A stretch of 63,986 nucleotides of DNA, taken from a virus (taxonomy: Duplodnaviria; Caudoviricetes). The stretch spans positions 1 through 63,986 of the IMG/VR virus record IMGVR_UViG_3300035701_009376, one strand, 5' to 3'. Below, piece after piece: positions 25,815-51,719 of the stretch. A program made the position numbers and the translations under genes. Position 1 is the first letter of the stretch. The number at the start of each line of letters is the position of its first letter. The notes beneath the pieces are model-generated. The model saw only the letters and a program-made list of their open reading frames with translations, did no database searches and was not told the origin of the DNA.

Positions 25815-26339
25815 ATGAATCCAGACGCAGTATTGATCCAAGTCCCGAGCATCGACTTCCGCACCTTCATCGGTCTCGGCCATAGGGTGCTGGGCCGCAG
25901 TCCAGCCGCTACGTCGGATGCCTGTCGTCGGGAACTATCGGACGCCGAGCGGTTCCTAAGCTGCCTGGCCGCGATGCGGGATGAGAAGGCACCCGTGGGA
26001 CTCTCACCCCATCTGCTGAAGCACGTCTCGTTCAGCGCGTTCATTGGGGCGGACGAACGGGACATGCTGGAAATCCTGCAACTGGCGAGTATGCCGTTTG
26101 TAGTGGTCGAGACGATTATGCGGGGAGTACAGGCGGCGGTCGTCACCGGCACTCTTGAACAATGGCGGGCCGCCGTCATCTCCGGTTGCGCCAGGGGCGC
26201 GCCGACCCCGGTACGGCATTGCTTCAACAAACTGCACGGCCTCTTCACGGCCGCCGGCCTCAATGTCTGGGGTGACTACACCCCTCGAACTAGCCCCGAC
26301 CAGACCTATCTGCTCTTGGAAGACAAAAGAGGCCGGTAG
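25815..26339 (+). CDS. Hypothetical protein with distant ThyX-like features
   Basis: HLLKHVSFSAFI and VVTGTLEQWR echo ThyX segments; the RHRxxS signature is absent. Confidence 0.4.
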   Translation: MNPDAVLIQVPSIDFRTFIGLGHRVLGRSPAATSDACRRELSDAERFLSCLAAMRDEKAPVGLSPHLLKHVSFSAFIGADERDMLEILQLASMPFVVVETIMRGVQAAVVTGTLEQWRAAVISGCARGAPTPVRHCFNKLHGLFTAAGLNVWGDYTPRTSPDQTYLLLEDKRGR

Positions 26340-26342
26340 GCG

Positions 26343-26380
26343 CTCTCGTTTTGCCAAGTTTTCGCGTTGTTACCTATAGG
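26343..26380 (+). promoter_or_regulatory. Phage promoter motif copy 1 (CTCTCG-N16-CGTTGT)
   Basis: CTCTCG TTTTGCCAAGTTTTCG CGTTGT TACCTATAGG, intergenic before the MTase. Confidence 0.75.
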
Positions 26381-26432
26381 ACTATCACGTCTTTCATCCT
26401 GAATCTATTACAGGTCCGCCGCAACGTCCGCT

Positions 26433-28052
26433 ATGCAACCCTATTTCACGCAAGACAAGCTGACCCTCTACTGCGGCGATTTGCGGCAAGTGCTGCCGAC
26501 CCTGCCAGAGAACAGCGTGGACTTTGTGGCGACGGACCCACCCTATGGTTTCAGCTTCATGGAGAAGGATTGGGACCACGAGGTTCCCGGCCCCGAGTTC
26601 TGGCGTGTCATCGGTCGCGTGTGCAAGCCCGGTGCGCTGCTGTTGGCTTTCGGCGGCACGCGGACCTATCACCGGTTGGTCTGCGCGATCGAGGATGCCG
26701 GGTGGGAGATTCGGGACTGCCTGATGTGGCTTCAGGGCCAGGGTTTCCCGAAAGCCGCCGACGTAGGCAAGATGATCGACAAGGCGAAGGGAGCCAAGCG
26801 CGAAGTCGTGGGCACGAAGGTCGGCTTGCCCGGCTACTCGCTGGCCGACAACGGCCGCACCAACGACATCTACGGCGATCTCCATAATCCCGAGGCCGAG
26901 TGCGCCATCACGGTTCCGGCTACGCCCGAGGCCGCCAAATGGACCGGCTGGGCCAACGCTCTGAAGCCCTGCTGGGAGCCCATAACCCTGGCGATGAAGC
27001 CGATGGACGGCACGATTGCTCACAACGCCCTGACCTGGGGCGTGGCGGGCATGAACATCGACGCTTGCCGCATCGGTGACAACCCCGGCTACAAGTACAA
27101 CGCCGACCGTAACGGCACGACCTTCCACGGCAAGCAGGGCGAGCGGATCAAGCAATCGGCCGAGAAGAAGGGCACTCAGTACATCGAGTCTACGAAGGGC
27201 CGTTGGCCGGGGAACCTGCTGCTGGACGAAGAGGCTGCCCAGCTTCTCGATGCCCAGACCGGGACGCTGAAAAGCGGCACCGGAGTCGTGCGGACGAAAG
27301 CCGGGGACGGCTACCACGGCGGCATGGGCAAGGCCGGCGATGCCCAAGTGGCCTATGGCGACTCCGGCGGTGCCAGTCGGTTTTTCTACACGGCTAAAGC
27401 GACCACAAGAGAACGCAATGACGGCTGTGAGAAGGTGGTGACATGGGAAGGCGTGGACCTAAGCCGCGAGACGGAAGATACGCTCCGACACGCAAGGGCT
27501 ATATCCGCTATCGGCATGGACTGTCTGGCCGCTATCGAATGGAACACGATCTTGTGTGGGAGCAGCACCGGGGGCCAATCCCGGACGGATATTGTGTTCA
27601 TCATGTCAACTTTGACAAGACTGATAACCGAATTGAGAACCTTCAACTTCTCACCTTCCTCGAACACAAACGCCTCCATTCTGGCTGCTACAAAGACGCT
27701 GTTGGCGACTGGATCAAACCTTGCCGCCGCTGCGGACGACATCGACCGATTTCGGAGTTCTACAAGCGTCGAAACGGCGTCTCTCCTTGGTGCCCTCAGT
27801 GCTGTGTTGCGAGTGCTGTTGCAAATAAGCGCAAGAGGACATCGCGGCAATCTACATCCATGCGTTAAACCCGTGAAGCTGATGGAGTATCTGCTGACGC
27901 TGCTCTCCACACCGGACGGCGGGGTGATTCTCGATCCTTTCGCCGGAAGCGGCTCGACCCTCCTGGCAGCCCAACGCCTCGACCGGCGCTGCATCGGTGT
28001 GGAGTTGATCGAACACAACTGCGAGATCATCAAGGCCCGTCTTCAGGGCTGA
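26433..28052 (+). CDS. DNA methyltransferase (N6A/N4C, beta-type order) with internal insertion
   Basis: TDPPY, ASRFFY, HPCVKP, ILDPFAGSGST motifs. Confidence 0.9.
   Translation: MQPYFTQDKLTLYCGDLRQVLPTLPENSVDFVATDPPYGFSFMEKDWDHEVPGPEFWRVIGRVCKPGALLLAFGGTRTYHRLVCAIEDAGWEIRDCLMWLQGQGFPKAADVGKMIDKAKGAKREVVGTKVGLPGYSLADNGRTNDIYGDLHNPEAECAITVPATPEAAKWTGWANALKPCWEPITLAMKPMDGTIAHNALTWGVAGMNIDACRIGDNPGYKYNADRNGTTFHGKQGERIKQSAEKKGTQYIESTKGRWPGNLLLDEEAAQLLDAQTGTLKSGTGVVRTKAGDGYHGGMGKAGDAQVAYGDSGGASRFFYTAKATTRERNDGCEKVVTWEGVDLSRETEDTLRHARAISAIGMDCLAAIEWNTILCGSSTGGQSRTDIVFIMSTLTRLITELRTFNFSPSSNTNASILAATKTLLATGSNLAAAADDIDRFRSSTSVETASLLGALSAVLRVLLQISARGHRGNLHPCVKPVKLMEYLLTLLSTPDGGVILDPFAGSGSTLLAAQRLDRRCIGVELIEHNCEIIKARLQG
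27443..27868 (+). CDS. HNH endonuclease nested in an alternate frame of the MTase
   Basis: EHDLVWEQHRGPIPDGYCVHHVNFDKTDNRIENLQLL..H plus CxxC...CxxC; AAGGTGGT RBS. Confidence 0.8.
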   Translation: MGRRGPKPRDGRYAPTRKGYIRYRHGLSGRYRMEHDLVWEQHRGPIPDGYCVHHVNFDKTDNRIENLQLLTFLEHKRLHSGCYKDAVGDWIKPCRRCGRHRPISEFYKRRNGVSPWCPQCCVASAVANKRKRTSRQSTSMR

Positions 28053-28062
28053 GGGAGTTTGA

Positions 28063-30099
28063 ATGTCGGTTGAAGCAGTCAAAGTCGAAGCCACCACGTC
28101 CAGTGGGACGCGAATCCGCGTGCCGGTGCTGCTGGAAAGAAAGGAAGGCCGCATCTACTTCTGGGACGGCAAGGTGGGCACGAAGACCCGCTACGGCTTG
28201 TCGTCGGAAGTCAAGGCCATGCGCGGCTCGCACTTCCACGGCTACGACGACGAGGGCGAGTACGCCAAGAAAATGGTGTGGTCGGTGGACGATTGCCAGC
28301 GCAACCGGTTCCAGATCGGCTATCTCTGCGGTCAAGACGTTTATGCCTGGTTCGACCGCTCGCTGATGCGCCACGAGTATCGGCCGCTGATGCGCGGCGG
28401 GGTGCCGCAGACGTTCATGCCGCACCAGGCGGACCTGGCCGACGCCGGCCTGACGTACCACTACCAGATATTCGGGGCCGAAATGGGCACGGGCAAGACC
28501 CTGGCTGCCCAGATGGTGATTGAGAAGTCGGGCGTCAACCTGGTGTGGTGGGCGGGGCCGAAGACCAGCATCCCGAACATCAAGCGCGAGTTCAAGCTGT
28601 GGGGTTTCCCCTTCAATCGTATCCAGGTCGCGTTCTTTACCTACGAAGGTCTCGTCCGCGTGATGGATGAATGGGACGGCTCGCAACCGCTGCCGCAATT
28701 CTTCGTGGCTGACGAATCGAGCCGGTGCAAGAACGACACGTCCCAGCGCTCCAAAGCCTGTCAGAAACTTGCCGACCTGATTCGCGACAAGTACGGCCTG
28801 GATGGCTACGTGATCCTCATGTCCGGCACGCCGTCGCCGAAGACGCCTTGTGACTGGTGGAGTCAGTGCGAGATCGCTTGGCCGGGCTTCTTGAAGGAAG
28901 GCAGCCGCCGGGCGATGGAAGAGCGGCTGGCCTTCATGGTCGAGCAGCAGTTCGATGCCGGCAAGTTCAAGAAGCGCATCGGTTGGAAGGACAACGAATG
29001 CAAGTGCGCCAAGTGCGGCGACACCTTCGAGGAAGGACCGCACGAGTTGGACGGGGTTACAGACCCGGAAGACTACCACAAATTCGAGGCCAGCAAGAAC
29101 GAAGTCGCCTACCTCTACGAACGACTCAAAGGGCTGGTGGTCGTCAAGCATAAGAAGGACTGCTTGCACCTGCCCGAGAAGCGATACCGCAAGGTCGTCT
29201 GCAAGCCTACGGCCAGCGTCCTGCGCGTGGCGGAATCCATCGTCCGCGCGGCCCCCAACGCGGTCACCGGCATGACGCTGCTGCGGGAACTAAGCGACGG
29301 ATTCCAGTACCGCGAAGTCCAGGACGGCATGACGAAATGCACGCATTGCACGGATGGCACGGTCGCCGAGTGGATGGACCCGGAAGACCCCGAGGCCCGC
29401 TACCAGGCCATCGACATGCTGGACCCGGACCTGTTGGCCCGTCTTGTCAAGGAGACCGTTCCCTGCCCGTTGTGCAACGGCAAGCGGGAAGTCCCCAAGA
29501 TGGCGCGCATCACTCGGGAAGTGCCCTGCCCGAAGGAAGCCGCCCTCAAAATGCTGCTGGACGAGAACGAAGAGGTCGGTCGGCTGGTGGTCTTCGCCGG
29601 CTTCACCGGTTCCGTGGATCGCATCGTCAAGCTGTGCCTGAAGGAGAAGTGGGACGTAGTGCGCTGCGATCAGGGCAACTTCCAAGTCTTCGCGTCCAAG
29701 AGCGACAGCCCGGATGGCGCTGTCGTGGCCGGCGAGGAGCCACTGGATTACTGGGCCAACTTGGAGGGGCACGGCAAGGTCGTCTTCGTCGCCAATCCCG
29801 AGTCGGGCGGCATGAGCCTGACGTTGGTAGAGGCTCGCATGGCGGTCTACTGGTCCAACAGTTGGAAACCGGAGTACCGCGTGCAAAGCGAGGATCGCAT
29901 CCACCGCAAGGGCATGGACGAGAACCTGGGCTGCATGATCGTGGACCTGATTCACCTGCCCAGTGACGACCGTGTACTCGACGTGATTCGCGCCAACCGG
30001 AAGTTGGAGCTGATGACGATGGGTGAAATCCTCCAGGGCGTTGACTGGCAGGATGCCGGCGAAGAAGGCGAGATGTCCGTGGAGGAGTTGACGCCGTGA
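28063..30099 (+). CDS. SF2 (SNF2-like) helicase with Cys-rich inserts
   Basis: EMGTGKT, DESS, MSGTP, QSEDRIHRKG motifs. Confidence 0.85.
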   Translation: MSVEAVKVEATTSSGTRIRVPVLLERKEGRIYFWDGKVGTKTRYGLSSEVKAMRGSHFHGYDDEGEYAKKMVWSVDDCQRNRFQIGYLCGQDVYAWFDRSLMRHEYRPLMRGGVPQTFMPHQADLADAGLTYHYQIFGAEMGTGKTLAAQMVIEKSGVNLVWWAGPKTSIPNIKREFKLWGFPFNRIQVAFFTYEGLVRVMDEWDGSQPLPQFFVADESSRCKNDTSQRSKACQKLADLIRDKYGLDGYVILMSGTPSPKTPCDWWSQCEIAWPGFLKEGSRRAMEERLAFMVEQQFDAGKFKKRIGWKDNECKCAKCGDTFEEGPHELDGVTDPEDYHKFEASKNEVAYLYERLKGLVVVKHKKDCLHLPEKRYRKVVCKPTASVLRVAESIVRAAPNAVTGMTLLRELSDGFQYREVQDGMTKCTHCTDGTVAEWMDPEDPEARYQAIDMLDPDLLARLVKETVPCPLCNGKREVPKMARITREVPCPKEAALKMLLDENEEVGRLVVFAGFTGSVDRIVKLCLKEKWDVVRCDQGNFQVFASKSDSPDGAVVAGEEPLDYWANLEGHGKVVFVANPESGGMSLTLVEARMAVYWSNSWKPEYRVQSEDRIHRKGMDENLGCMIVDLIHLPSDDRVLDVIRANRKLELMTMGEILQGVDWQDAGEEGEMSVEELTP

Positions 30100-50032: not shown

Positions 50033-50679
50033 GCTACACCCGAAAGCAGATTGCCGAGGCCCTGGACCTGGCCGTTCTGAGGCCGACCGCCACGCACGCC
50101 GACATCGTTCGGGCGGCGCACAAAGTCAAGACTGAGAGCATTCGCTCGCTCTGTGTGGCCCCGGTCAACGTCGGCATAGCGCGCCTGTACGCCGAAGACA
50201 TCGCGGCCGTCGTCGGCTTCCCGCACGGCAACACCCTGCCGGCCGTCAAGGTGCTGGAAGCCAGCCTGGCCGTCAGCCACGGGGCGACCGAGCTGGACGT
50301 AGTGGTCAACTATGGCCACTTTCTGGCCGGCAAGCCGCAGACGGTCAAGGAGGAGTTGACCCTGTTGGTCAACCTCTTCCGGCCCATGCCCGTCGTCGTC
50401 AAGGCCATTCTGGAAACGTCCTACTACAACCCGGACCAGATTCGCGATGCCTGCAAGCTGTGCGTCGATTGCGGCGTGGGGTTCGTGAAGACTTCCACCG
50501 GGTTCGGCTCCGGTGGGGCGACGGAGGAAGCGGTCAGAATCATGGTCGCTGCCGTGCGCGGCAGCGGCGTGGGAGTGAAGGCCAGCGGTGGCATCAAGAC
50601 CTATGCCGACGCCGCCCGCTACCTGGACCTGGGCTGCACCCGTCTTGGCTCGTCCGTCTTCGAGGAGTTGCTGCCATGA
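50029..50679 (+). CDS. deoC: Deoxyribose-phosphate aldolase
   Basis: VGFPHG, ELDVV, KAILET, FVKTSTGF, VKASGGI, RLGSS motifs. Confidence 0.92.
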   Translation: MSYTRKQIAEALDLAVLRPTATHADIVRAAHKVKTESIRSLCVAPVNVGIARLYAEDIAAVVGFPHGNTLPAVKVLEASLAVSHGATELDVVVNYGHFLAGKPQTVKEELTLLVNLFRPMPVVVKAILETSYYNPDQIRDACKLCVDCGVGFVKTSTGFGSGGATEEAVRIMVAAVRGSGVGVKASGGIKTYADAARYLDLGCTRLGSSVFEELLP

Positions 50680-51719
50680 ATCGCCTCTTCTACAACCGCG
50701 TCTACTTATCTGGCCCCATCGACAATGCCAAGGACTTTGGCGTCGGCTGGCGGCAAATGGTCCGCGAGCGCCTGGCCGATTTGGACTTGATCTTCCTGGA
50801 CCCATGCAAGAAGCCGTTGCAACTGGGGTTCGCCTGTGAAGACTTGGAGAACCACAGACGCCGCTTAGCCTTGAAACGCATCGGCGACTTCGAGACGATT
50901 TCCCGCGAGATGCGACTGATTCGTTGCATCGACCTTAGACTGGCAGACCTCTGCGACTTTGCCATCACGCATCTCGATCTCAACATCTACTCCACGGGGA
51001 CGCATGAGGAAGTCACCACCCTGAACCGGCGGAAGGTGCCGATCCTCGTTCATGTCGAGCAAGGCAAGGAGAACCTGCCGGACTGGTATTTAGGTGCGTT
51101 GCCGCATCAACACGTCTTTGGCGAGTGGGACGATCTTTTCGCTTACGTCCGGCACGTCGCCCACGATCCGCCACCCATCGACACCTTCAACCGCTGGCGT
51201 TTTCTGGACTACGGACTGCTTTATGGGATGAATACGATCCCGTTGACACAAGGAAAGTGTGCGACCATCAGCCCGGAAGACTACCGCCACCTGATGCAAT
51301 GGAGTTGGCACGCCGCCAAGAAGGGCCGGCAGACCATCACGTACTACGCAGAGCGTGGCGTGAACGGCAAGGCTGGGCGTCAGCACGTTGGGATGCACCA
51401 GCAGGTCGTCAAGCGTATGGGGATGGCCGTGCCGCCTGGTTACACCATCGACCATATCAACAGTGACCCGCTCGACAATCGCCGCGAGAACCTGCGCATC
51501 GTGACGGAAAGCCAGAACCAATGGAACCGGCGGCGAGGCGGTGACAACCGCACCGGAGTCAAAGGTGTGTGCTACGACGAGGCCAACAAAACCTACAAAG
51601 CGGCTGTCTGGAAGGGCAACAAGCCGGTGTGGCAGAAGCACTTCAAGACCCTCAGTGCCGCGACAAAGGCCATTGAAAAGGCCCGCAAAGAGTTGCACGG
51701 GGACTGCGCTCGCAACTAG
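50676..51719 (+). CDS. Nucleoside 2-deoxyribosyltransferase-like protein fused to an HNH-AP2 endonuclease (from ATG 51228)
   Basis: VYLSGPID..WR, DL, STGTHEE; then IPLTQGK, IDHINSDPLDNRRENLR, TGVKGV. Confidence 0.8.
   Translation: MNRLFYNRVYLSGPIDNAKDFGVGWRQMVRERLADLDLIFLDPCKKPLQLGFACEDLENHRRRLALKRIGDFETISREMRLIRCIDLRLADLCDFAITHLDLNIYSTGTHEEVTTLNRRKVPILVHVEQGKENLPDWYLGALPHQHVFGEWDDLFAYVRHVAHDPPPIDTFNRWRFLDYGLLYGMNTIPLTQGKCATISPEDYRHLMQWSWHAAKKGRQTITYYAERGVNGKAGRQHVGMHQQVVKRMGMAVPPGYTIDHINSDPLDNRRENLRIVTESQNQWNRRRGGDNRTGVKGVCYDEANKTYKAAVWKGNKPVWQKHFKTLSAATKAIEKARKELHGDCARN

Follow-up and report, generated by a model that had tools for sequence, protein, structure and literature searches.

We analysed a 63,986-nt stretch of viral DNA (Duplodnaviria; Caudoviricetes), IMG/VR provirus record IMGVR_UViG_3300035701_009376, positions 1 to 63,986, referred to as a whole as the window. 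A gene for a 141-residue HNH endonuclease lies out of frame inside an uninterrupted DNA methylase gene in this window, and the insert that carries it is probably a selfish homing-endonuclease element of the ShiLan-like 'out-of-frame HNH in methylase' kind, translated through without splicing. Homing endonuclease genes ride in self-splicing introns or inteins, which spares the genes that they enter. A homing gene that uses an open host frame and read-through represents a third strategy, previously described by computation in a few mycobacteriophages. The comparison reported here adds a quantitative sign of selection that is missing from the published work: the host frame was free of stops in 30/30 nested copies, compared with 1/33 free-standing relatives.

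Nested HNH gene and host methylase

The features of the methylase gene and its insert are listed below, with positions in the window.

26433..28052, + strand: open reading frame (ORF) of a beta-class amino-DNA methyltransferase (methylase), 539 aa, stop-free through the insert (ORF listing)
26535..26546, + strand: catalytic motif IV D-P-P-Y (..VATDPPYGFS..), intact (translation; columns nearly invariant in the methylase alignment)
27417..27845, + strand: insert, ~429 nt, borders ± ~6 nt (DNA and protein alignment with insert-free homologues; GC profile)
27432..27441, + strand: Shine-Dalgarno (SD)-like word AAGGTGGTGA, ending two bases before the HNH ATG (27443) and reading within C-E-K-V-V-T-W-E in the methylase frame
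27443..27868, + strand: HNH_3 endonuclease gene (141 aa) that lies wholly within the methylase ORF, offset +2 from its frame (ORF listing)
27846..27872, + strand: host motif G-N-x-H-P-x-V-K-P directly 3' of the insert, overlapped by the 3' end of the HNH ORF (7 codons plus the stop)
27866..27868, + strand: HNH stop TAA, formed by the host codons GTT AAA (V-K of HPCVKP), which are GTC AAG in insert-free alleles
27933..27959, + strand: S-adenosylmethionine (SAM)-binding motif I D-P-F-A-G-S-G-S-T, intact and in frame downstream of the insert (translation; columns invariant in the methylase alignment)

The HNH ORF matched PF13392 HNH_3 in Pfam (E = 2.5e-16, 59.5 bits with a cut-off of 24.8). It consists of an HNH core, a CxxC...CxxC zinc ribbon and a basic C-terminal helix. 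Residues H53, H54, N62, N66, H75, C94, C97, C117 and C120 are invariant in 31 sequences, and the start Met and the N-terminus M-G-x-R-G-P-K are conserved in the family alignment. An AlphaFold2 model of the protein has a mean pLDDT (predicted local distance difference test score) of 91.2, and its closest solved fold, as found by Foldseek, is I-HmuI (1u3e), a weak match (E = 0.12, probability 0.92). Since a search of solved structures with the HNH family profile returned no sequence-level match at E <= 0.01, and the Foldseek match is weak, the family assignment rests on Pfam.

The SD-like word is conserved in L003, L004, L088, L168 and L169, which are close copies of the window element. Of 37 nested copies, 23 have such a word 4–18 nt ahead of the ATG, compared with 146 of 865 control windows (17%). 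Separate internal initiation of the HNH protein is the simplest reading of this arrangement.

A preliminary description of the DNA, made from the letters alone, had claimed a complete 141-aa HNH ORF with its own ribosome-binding site (RBS), in another frame and wholly inside the methylase, and the ORFs, the PF13392 match and the SD-like word agree with this. It had also claimed that the methylase frame crosses a lower-GC stretch of ~430 nt without a stop, and that this stretch is Ser/Thr-rich and unlike a methylase. Both points held: the 539-aa ORF is continuous, the GC content is 0.49–0.59 over ~27400–27950 as opposed to 0.60–0.69 on either side, the read-through peptide is rich in S (12.7%), T (11.1%), L (9.8%) and A (8.7%), and the methylase-frame reading of 27420–27870 matched no Pfam family at E <= 0.01.

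The methylase ORF itself matched PF01555 N6_N4_Mtase (E = 4.4e-25, Pfam) in two stretches and phrog_67 DNA methyltransferase (E = 1.3e-56). The profile match is split by the target-recognition region, and motif IV D-P-P-Y precedes motif I F-x-G-x-G. An AlphaFold model of the full protein (mean pLDDT 66) resembles the beta-class enzymes CcrM, M.RsrI and M.BceJIV, the best solved match being CcrM (6pbd, E = 1.2e-5). With its D-P-P-Y and F-x-G-x-G motifs intact, the host methylase looks functional.

The junction was mapped by DNA alignment with six insert-free loci (L248, L252, L253, L254, L264 and L266), in which 6 nt (codons G-P) stand in place of the 429-nt insert. A protein search found insert-free homologues of 398–400 aa with up to 92% identity (P0005), and full-length insert-bearing homologues (P0002, P0004, P0018, P0040 and P0046). 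This alignment, which the preliminary description had suggested as a check, places the insertion site at ~residue 331 of the insert-free protein, in the loop between the ..K-E-R(G) codons and the conserved G-N-D-H-P-T-V-K-P motif, within the linker that separates the target-recognition region from this motif. The HNH ORF extends 23 nt past the insert into the host motif. Among the 35 nested copies in which the motif was located, the HNH stop begins 1 nt before the Lys codon in nine, 10 nt before it in seven and 19 nt before it in five. In the DNA alignment, insert-bearing alleles swap the D of the motif (to L/S/T), and often also the P or T.

Two further candidate features were rejected. The insert 3' end (K-G-x-R-G-N) resembles the 5' exon end (K-E-R-G-x-G-N), but a target-site duplication is unproven, and the basic tail is also found in free-standing HNH copies. 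An antisense ORF of 215 aa (27386..28033, − strand) was considered as a third coding frame; it is a by-product and not specific to nesting, the antisense frame codon-aligned to HNH being open in 10/30 nested copies and 20/33 free-standing relatives.

Stop codons and substitutions in the two frames

Relatives were fetched using the HNH protein and the HNH family alignment, so that the sample is independent of the host frame. The scans gave 245 loci (the best 80 per scan were kept, of 368–418 confirmed per collection), and the flanking methylase parts were located in these loci by tblastn of an insert-free methylase. Consecutive methylase parts flanked 43 HNH matches, and all 43 lie in the same relative frame (+2). 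The two methylase parts share a common frame in 37/43, and no stop lies between the flanks in 40/43.

The loci were de-replicated by keeping matches that cover at least 95 residues and removing copies identical over the first 120 nt. All 30 of the non-identical copies with methylase on both sides have zero host-frame stops, whereas permutation of synonymous codons in the nested copies expects 11.07 to be open and a mean of 1.04 stops in this frame. The other sense frame of the nested copies has a mean of 9.37 stops (9.43 expected), with 6–22 in most copies; the AT-rich ones have 13–22 stops there and 0 in the host frame. The corresponding frame of the free-standing relatives is open in 1/33, with a mean of 2.76 stops (2.78 expected). 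The difference between nested and free-standing copies is highly significant (Fisher p = 3.6e-17), and the stop-free host frame holds across hosts with 34–65% GC. The comparison gives strong evidence that selection keeps the host frame free of stops, and the stop depletion that the preliminary description had proposed to look for in homologous inserts was found, 0/30 having a methylase-frame stop.

Substitutions among the window and L003, L004, L088, L168 and L169 number 267, 188 and 442 at HNH codon positions 1, 2 and 3, respectively. Since they pile up at third positions, the HNH frame is under purifying selection at the protein level. In 14 of the 15 pairs among these six close copies, the HNH reading has a higher amino-acid identity than the methylase-frame reading, and the methylase frame across the insert is mainly just kept open. 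The host-frame reading of the insert changes mostly at its own second codon positions. As the HNH wobble base is the second base of the host codon, the read-through peptide is rich in Ser, Thr, Leu and Ala, and it follows from the code that synonymous HNH changes alone could avoid host stops and tune the composition of the linker. The fraction of fourfold sites kept, in pairs at 60–95% HNH identity, is 0.43/0.62/0.74 for nested and 0.36/0.36/0.59 for free-standing copies. This excess is only a hint of a second constraint, because faster change of the nested protein gives the same pattern and the pairs are non-independent.

The read-through peptide (~residues 331–470) was modelled by AlphaFold as a helical bundle with pLDDT ~70–92. 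The corresponding region of GC-rich relatives is an S/T/G/P-rich low-complexity sequence, so no common fold is conserved across the family.

Proposed read-through, mobility and competing explanations

To place insert-bearing and insert-free alleles relative to each other, an extein-only tree was constructed for 44 methylases (6 insert-bearing, 38 insert-free), hand-picked from 120 listed homologues. The insert needs 6 changes on this tree, at least 5 of which are forced by well-supported branches, and an insert-free allele neighbours every carrier. Between carriers and insert-free alleles, extein identity is 66–92%, and the HNH genes of the tree carriers form one clade with 99% support in a quick tree. 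As expected for a homing element, the insert-bearing alleles are scattered among insert-free ones that are up to 92% identical. The mapped junction, the stop-free homologous inserts and the lack of intein or intron signatures all favour what the preliminary description had put forward, namely a splicing-free homing element that keeps the host frame open and makes the DNA dual-coding.

Public sediment metagenomes contain the window allele, and identical contigs in X4 span the 5' junction. The X3 sediment metagenome holds an insert-free relative ~86% alike, in which 27373 is joined to 27863, alongside insert-bearing DNA. Stretches of the window without contig cover in X3 and X5 say nothing on absence. 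In 33 loci, mostly on chromosomes of Planctomycetota and Acidobacteriota, a free-standing relative of the HNH gene immediately follows a ParB-methylase gene.

We propose that the methylase mRNA is translated straight through the insert, with neither RNA nor protein splicing. The product would be a methylase with ~141 extra Ser/Thr/Leu/Ala-rich residues, predicted to be helical in the window lineage and looped out of the fold. Ribosomes starting internally, at the SD and ATG of the HNH gene, would produce the HNH protein as a separate product. During co-infection this protein would cut the uninterrupted motif region of insert-free methylase alleles, and repair of the cut would copy the insert into the recipient allele. 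The site in the carrier would be destroyed by the insert together with the altered flanking codons (D to L/S/T, GTC to GTT).

Several points weigh against this proposal. The methylase is broken right after H-P-T in 5/30 nested relatives (L028, L030, L031, L095 and L210), with changes of 5–7 nt at H-P-T, and L168 has a 1-nt insertion, a frameshift, where these split methylases break. The confident helical prediction for the read-through peptide is not what one expects of a linker that is merely tolerated junk, and may point to a role for the peptide itself. Members of the lineage reside inside true inteins, so that a splicing past or an unrecognised splicing route is not absurd. The window alone is not significant: when its own HNH codons are permuted synonymously, the methylase frame stays open in 58% of 500 trials. 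This permutation expects 0.5 stops, compared with ~2.8 in free-standing relatives, and the result is non-significant because the HNH codon choice is already adapted. The nested and free-standing copies share descent and two clades dominate the free-standing set, so that the 30 and the 33 are not independent events. Contigs from the metatranscriptome library X23 are ~90% alike and have no bearing on splicing either way. Finally, we infer the absence of splicing, the activity of both proteins and the HNH cut site from sequence only.

The split methylases were examined at the following sites. In each, the first ORF ends H-P-T-stop and the second starts at or near a duplicated Thr codon (T-V-K-P).

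L028, 2960–3090: split-methylase site
L031, 2960–3090: split-methylase site
L030, 1070–1180: split-methylase site
L095, 2900–3010: split-methylase site
L210, 2870–2980: split-methylase site

A TTGA or GTGA stop/start overlap in L028, L030 and L031 indicates a two-piece gene, and the split methylases look like two-piece genes rather than assembly errors. An unbroken host frame is, among these relatives, the usual solution and not the sole one.

Removal of the insert by unrecognised RNA or protein splicing, for example as a degenerate or atypical intein with an out-of-frame endonuclease, would leave a mature methylase without the 141 residues. This is unlikely. In its favour, six members of the HNH lineage are nested out of frame in the middle of canonical inteins, as identified by Hint/Intein_splicing matches and a C..HN then T or C pattern.

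L094, 1197–3233: HNH gene nested in an intein of a ParB-methylase
L209, 1176–3209: HNH gene nested in an intein of a ParB-methylase
L207, 3–2072: HNH gene nested in an intein of a ParB-methylase
L204, 1188–2927: HNH gene nested in an intein of a ParB-methylase
L225, 1551–3161: HNH gene nested in an intein of a methylase
L053, 1326–3824: HNH gene nested in an intein of a terminase large subunit

The methylase inteins interrupt the H-P|T-x-K-P motif, within a few codons of the insertion site in the window, and in the quick tree the intein-nested clade falls inside a well-supported clade with direct-nested copies. Furthermore, the window-lineage insert begins with Cys, and protein splicing demands exactly an open host frame.

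Against splicing, no Hint, Vint or Intein_splicing match was detected in the window methylase protein at E <= 0.01 (Pfam), and Hint/intein matches are absent at the same threshold from all 30 direct-nested ORFs with both flanks, the window included. The six intein-bearing relatives served as positive controls and did give such matches. The insert of ~143 codons is filled by the HNH ORF, and its read-through product is predicted to be all-helical rather than the beta-rich Hint fold. The C-terminal His-Asn followed by Cys/Ser/Thr of an intein is lacking, as the insert ends ..R-G-N and the next residue is L/T/V/A/S depending on the allele; the initial Cys is not conserved in other nested copies. 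RNA splicing, for its part, needs no open frame. An Rfam scan of 26300–28300 by E-value gave 6 matches, all with E >= 0.96 and far under their gathering scores, and no intron family even at E <= 10, with the limit that a novel ribozyme might escape the libraries searched. The HNH ORF occupies all but ~26 nt of the insert, which leaves no room for a ribozyme core. The view of the preliminary description that no intein terminus or obvious group I/II intron core is visible agrees with the lack of Hint, intein and Rfam intron matches. The X23 library yielded short contigs only, ~87–93% like the window and some of them within the insert. One X23 contig with an insert-free junction was considered as a spliced product and rejected, since its D-H-P-T-V-K codons are typical of insert-free alleles and point to another phage.

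Translation through the insert might also matter for reasons other than the methylase. If the methylase were dispensable or inactive in carriers, an open frame could serve only to prevent truncation from having polar or toxic effects, or to allow ribosomes to reach downstream genes. The methylase is not essential according to the mycobacteriophage paper (PMC11855218). In the present set the gene is split in 5/30 relatives and frameshifted in one, and the helicase gene (28063) follows so closely after the methylase stop that its translation may be coupled. We nevertheless regard this explanation as improbable, to about the same degree as splicing: the catalytic and SAM-binding motifs are intact, the exteins remain 66–92% identical to insert-free ones, the split variants retain both halves with stop/start overlaps typical of coupled translation, and the stop-free state is kept across hosts of 34–65% GC.

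Still less probable is that the HNH protein is no homing enzyme and has been domesticated to work with the methylase, either as a restriction-like or addiction nuclease nested in it or as a phage nuclease with some other role. The free-standing relatives downstream of ParB-methylase genes in 33 loci suggest a standing link between HNH and methylase, but intron-less homing is also known from endonuclease genes that stand free next to their targets. The presence of the gene is sporadic among near-identical methylase alleles, the HNH family occupies several sites and can have several copies in one gene, the HNH also nests in inteins and in a terminase gene, and the flanking codons of the presumed target are altered, all of which is characteristic of homing elements.

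Chance, by which a high-GC genome yields long open frames and the open methylase frame is meaningless, can practically be discarded: the window permutation is compatible with it and an antisense frame is also open, but it is already refuted by 30/30 nested versus 1/33 free-standing open copies and by the AT-rich nested copies with stops only in the other sense frame, and the antisense frame is open irrespective of nesting.

Known systems and other nested arrangements

The HNH_3-type core of the window protein is shared with I-HmuI, a group I intron-encoded HNH homing endonuclease of phage SPO1 (PDB 1u3e), which differs in being intron-encoded and longer than the window HNH. Another HNH gene, mobE, was reportedly found by Gibb and Edgell in 2007 embedded in nrdA of Aeromonas phage Aeh1, and is said to split nrdA into two separately translated pieces. 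It resembles the window element in that a free-standing homing gene of the HNH type has entered a conserved phage gene with neither an intron nor an intein; in contrast, the host frame in the window is continuous, and the split state occurs only in five relatives.

The closest precedent is the ShiLan domain, an out-of-frame HNH in mycobacteriophage methylases that was first described in 2023–2025, by computation alone (PMC11855218). Its host frame is free of stops, the third frame codes for an HNH whose stop lies at the end of the insert, signs of an intron or intein are missing, and read-through with leaderless GTG initiation was proposed for it (PMC11855218). The window element resembles it in the PF01555 host methylase (~45% identical to that of the window), in the HNH_3-type ORF in the third frame, in an insert that adds no host stop and has the HNH stop at its 3' edge, in the lack of an intron or intein signature, and in its sporadic distribution; read-through is a proposal in both.

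The two differ in several respects. The ShiLan-type insert, as seen in phage Bipolar, follows A-L-K-P-S at ~residue 190 of the insert-free protein and begins with a copy of the downstream exon, whereas that in the window is at ~residue 331, ~140 codons further. The window HNH has 141 aa and one C-terminal zinc ribbon, while the ShiLan HNH has 195 aa and zinc fingers on both sides. The window gene has an SD and an ATG, while ShiLan has a GTG and no RBS (PMC11855218). The window is a sediment provirus and not a Mycobacterium phage. No mycobacteriophage was among the 40 best of 989 records matching the window HNH, and cultured phages were represented only by distant HNH relatives among the matches listed. 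Judged by the insertion site and the insert sequence, both of which differ, the window element is not the ShiLan domain proper. On the same comparison, the insertion site, the smaller HNH lineage, the host range outside Actinobacteria and the visible RBS are new with respect to the published work.

A second, unrelated out-of-frame nuclease-like ORF in a phage methylase, Pacc40 gp60, has free-standing relatives beside methylase genes in other phages (PMC11855218). Compared by description only, it differs in that the host belongs to another methylase family (a helicase-methylase fusion) and in that its HNH assignment is less certain according to the authors. Inteins with the homing endonuclease in another frame are treated by Gosselin, Arsenault and Gogarten, of the same group as the ShiLan paper, in a preprint (bioRxiv 10.1101/2025.01.02.630785) whose available passages describe an out-of-frame enzyme resembling endonuclease VII, located in genes for polymerase, capsid, terminase and thymidylate synthase. 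As far as these passages go, the likeness is that the nuclease ORF lies in frame 3 of a host sequence that must stay open, a layout shared by the six intein-nested relatives of the window HNH. The differences are that no intein surrounds the window HNH, and that an HNH_3 in a methylase intein is not reported in those passages.

A broader scheme, which we put forward tentatively as a possibility, is that one HNH_3 lineage has specialised to live inside the frames of other genes. It would move between four states: free-standing by methylases, in inteins, directly nested without splicing, and beside a programmed split of the host. Its +1 frame would be kept stop-free by codon choice, its stop codon would be borrowed from the host H-x-T-x-K-P motif, and the read-through peptide, rather than being junk, would be shaped via the HNH wobble positions into a compact helical spacer tolerated by the methylase. 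If true, a homing gene could persist harmlessly in coding sequence by a third route, beside introns and inteins, and the arrangement might have been a stage on the way to inteins that carry endonucleases. We found no published account that connects these four states (free-standing, intein-nested, directly nested and split-gene) within one HNH lineage.

Related HNH genes are nested at three further sites of the methylase family, after ~residues 113, 191 and 264. Two nested HNH genes in one methylase ORF, in tandem or at separate sites, are present in L008 (698–2830), L064 (876–3263, the same as L068) and L221 (2–2608); the tandem HNH genes of L008 span a gap of 897 nt without a host-frame stop. 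HNH_3 genes in L312 (415–1062) and L314 (1314–1940), one of them with NUMOD3, lie in the +1 frame of open methylase ORFs, so +2 is not the sole workable arrangement.

Cylindrospermopsis phage Cr-LKS3, a cultured cyanophage, has a 616-aa 'DNA methylase' (g59; L329, 1396–3246) that hides an unannotated +2-frame HNH_3 ORF at the A-L-K-P-A site. Gene callers report the methylase only, so that nested nuclease genes are systematically missed and insert-bearing 'long' methylases are mis-read as carrying a domain of unknown function.

Other inserts were found in the same methylase family. In L257 (1001–2640) and L274 (402–1960), corresponding to P0008, P0093 and P0101, a different insert of ~145 codons follows S-R-F-F with the host frame stop-free. 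It contains a +2-frame ORF with CxxC...H-H...CxxCH, which had no Pfam match at E <= 0.001, and terminates in a copy of the R-F-(K)-Y..K-A-x-K-K-E-R-G exon sequence. In-frame LAGLIDADG insertions, with no intein detected, are present in L004 (78–2237; aa 78–176), L014 (40–2673; aa 284–324) and L328 (phage Taj gp79), and L004 combines the LAGLIDADG insertion with a nested HNH. Protein alignment showed that P0007 (589 aa) has an insert of ~190 aa after A-L-K-P-A that starts with a diverged copy of the downstream exon, as reported for ShiLan, and that P0067 has an internal duplication of the G-R-W-P-A-N..L-D-E region. In P0121 and P0087, which belong to one 41.7-kb contig, the HNH frame continues into the C-terminal part of the methylase (203 aa, PF13392 and PF01555) and a frameshift affects the N-terminal methylase part; either the copy has decayed or HNH and methylase have become fused.

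The methylase of the window is located in a phage replication module consisting of a primase, a ParB-like protein, the methylase, a helicase (starting at 28063, close behind the methylase stop), an exonuclease and a ParB-like protein. The nearest copies of the window element are in Planctomycetaceae metagenome-assembled genomes. A second HNH_3-like region (51363–51518) lies elsewhere in the window, in frame near the C-terminus of a 419-aa ORF (50460–51719, + strand), and is 35% identical to residues 25–75 of the nested HNH. An AP2-like tail, as read from the sequence by eye, comes after it. The region could belong to a further homing-type nuclease, to which the upstream gene is fused or into which it runs.

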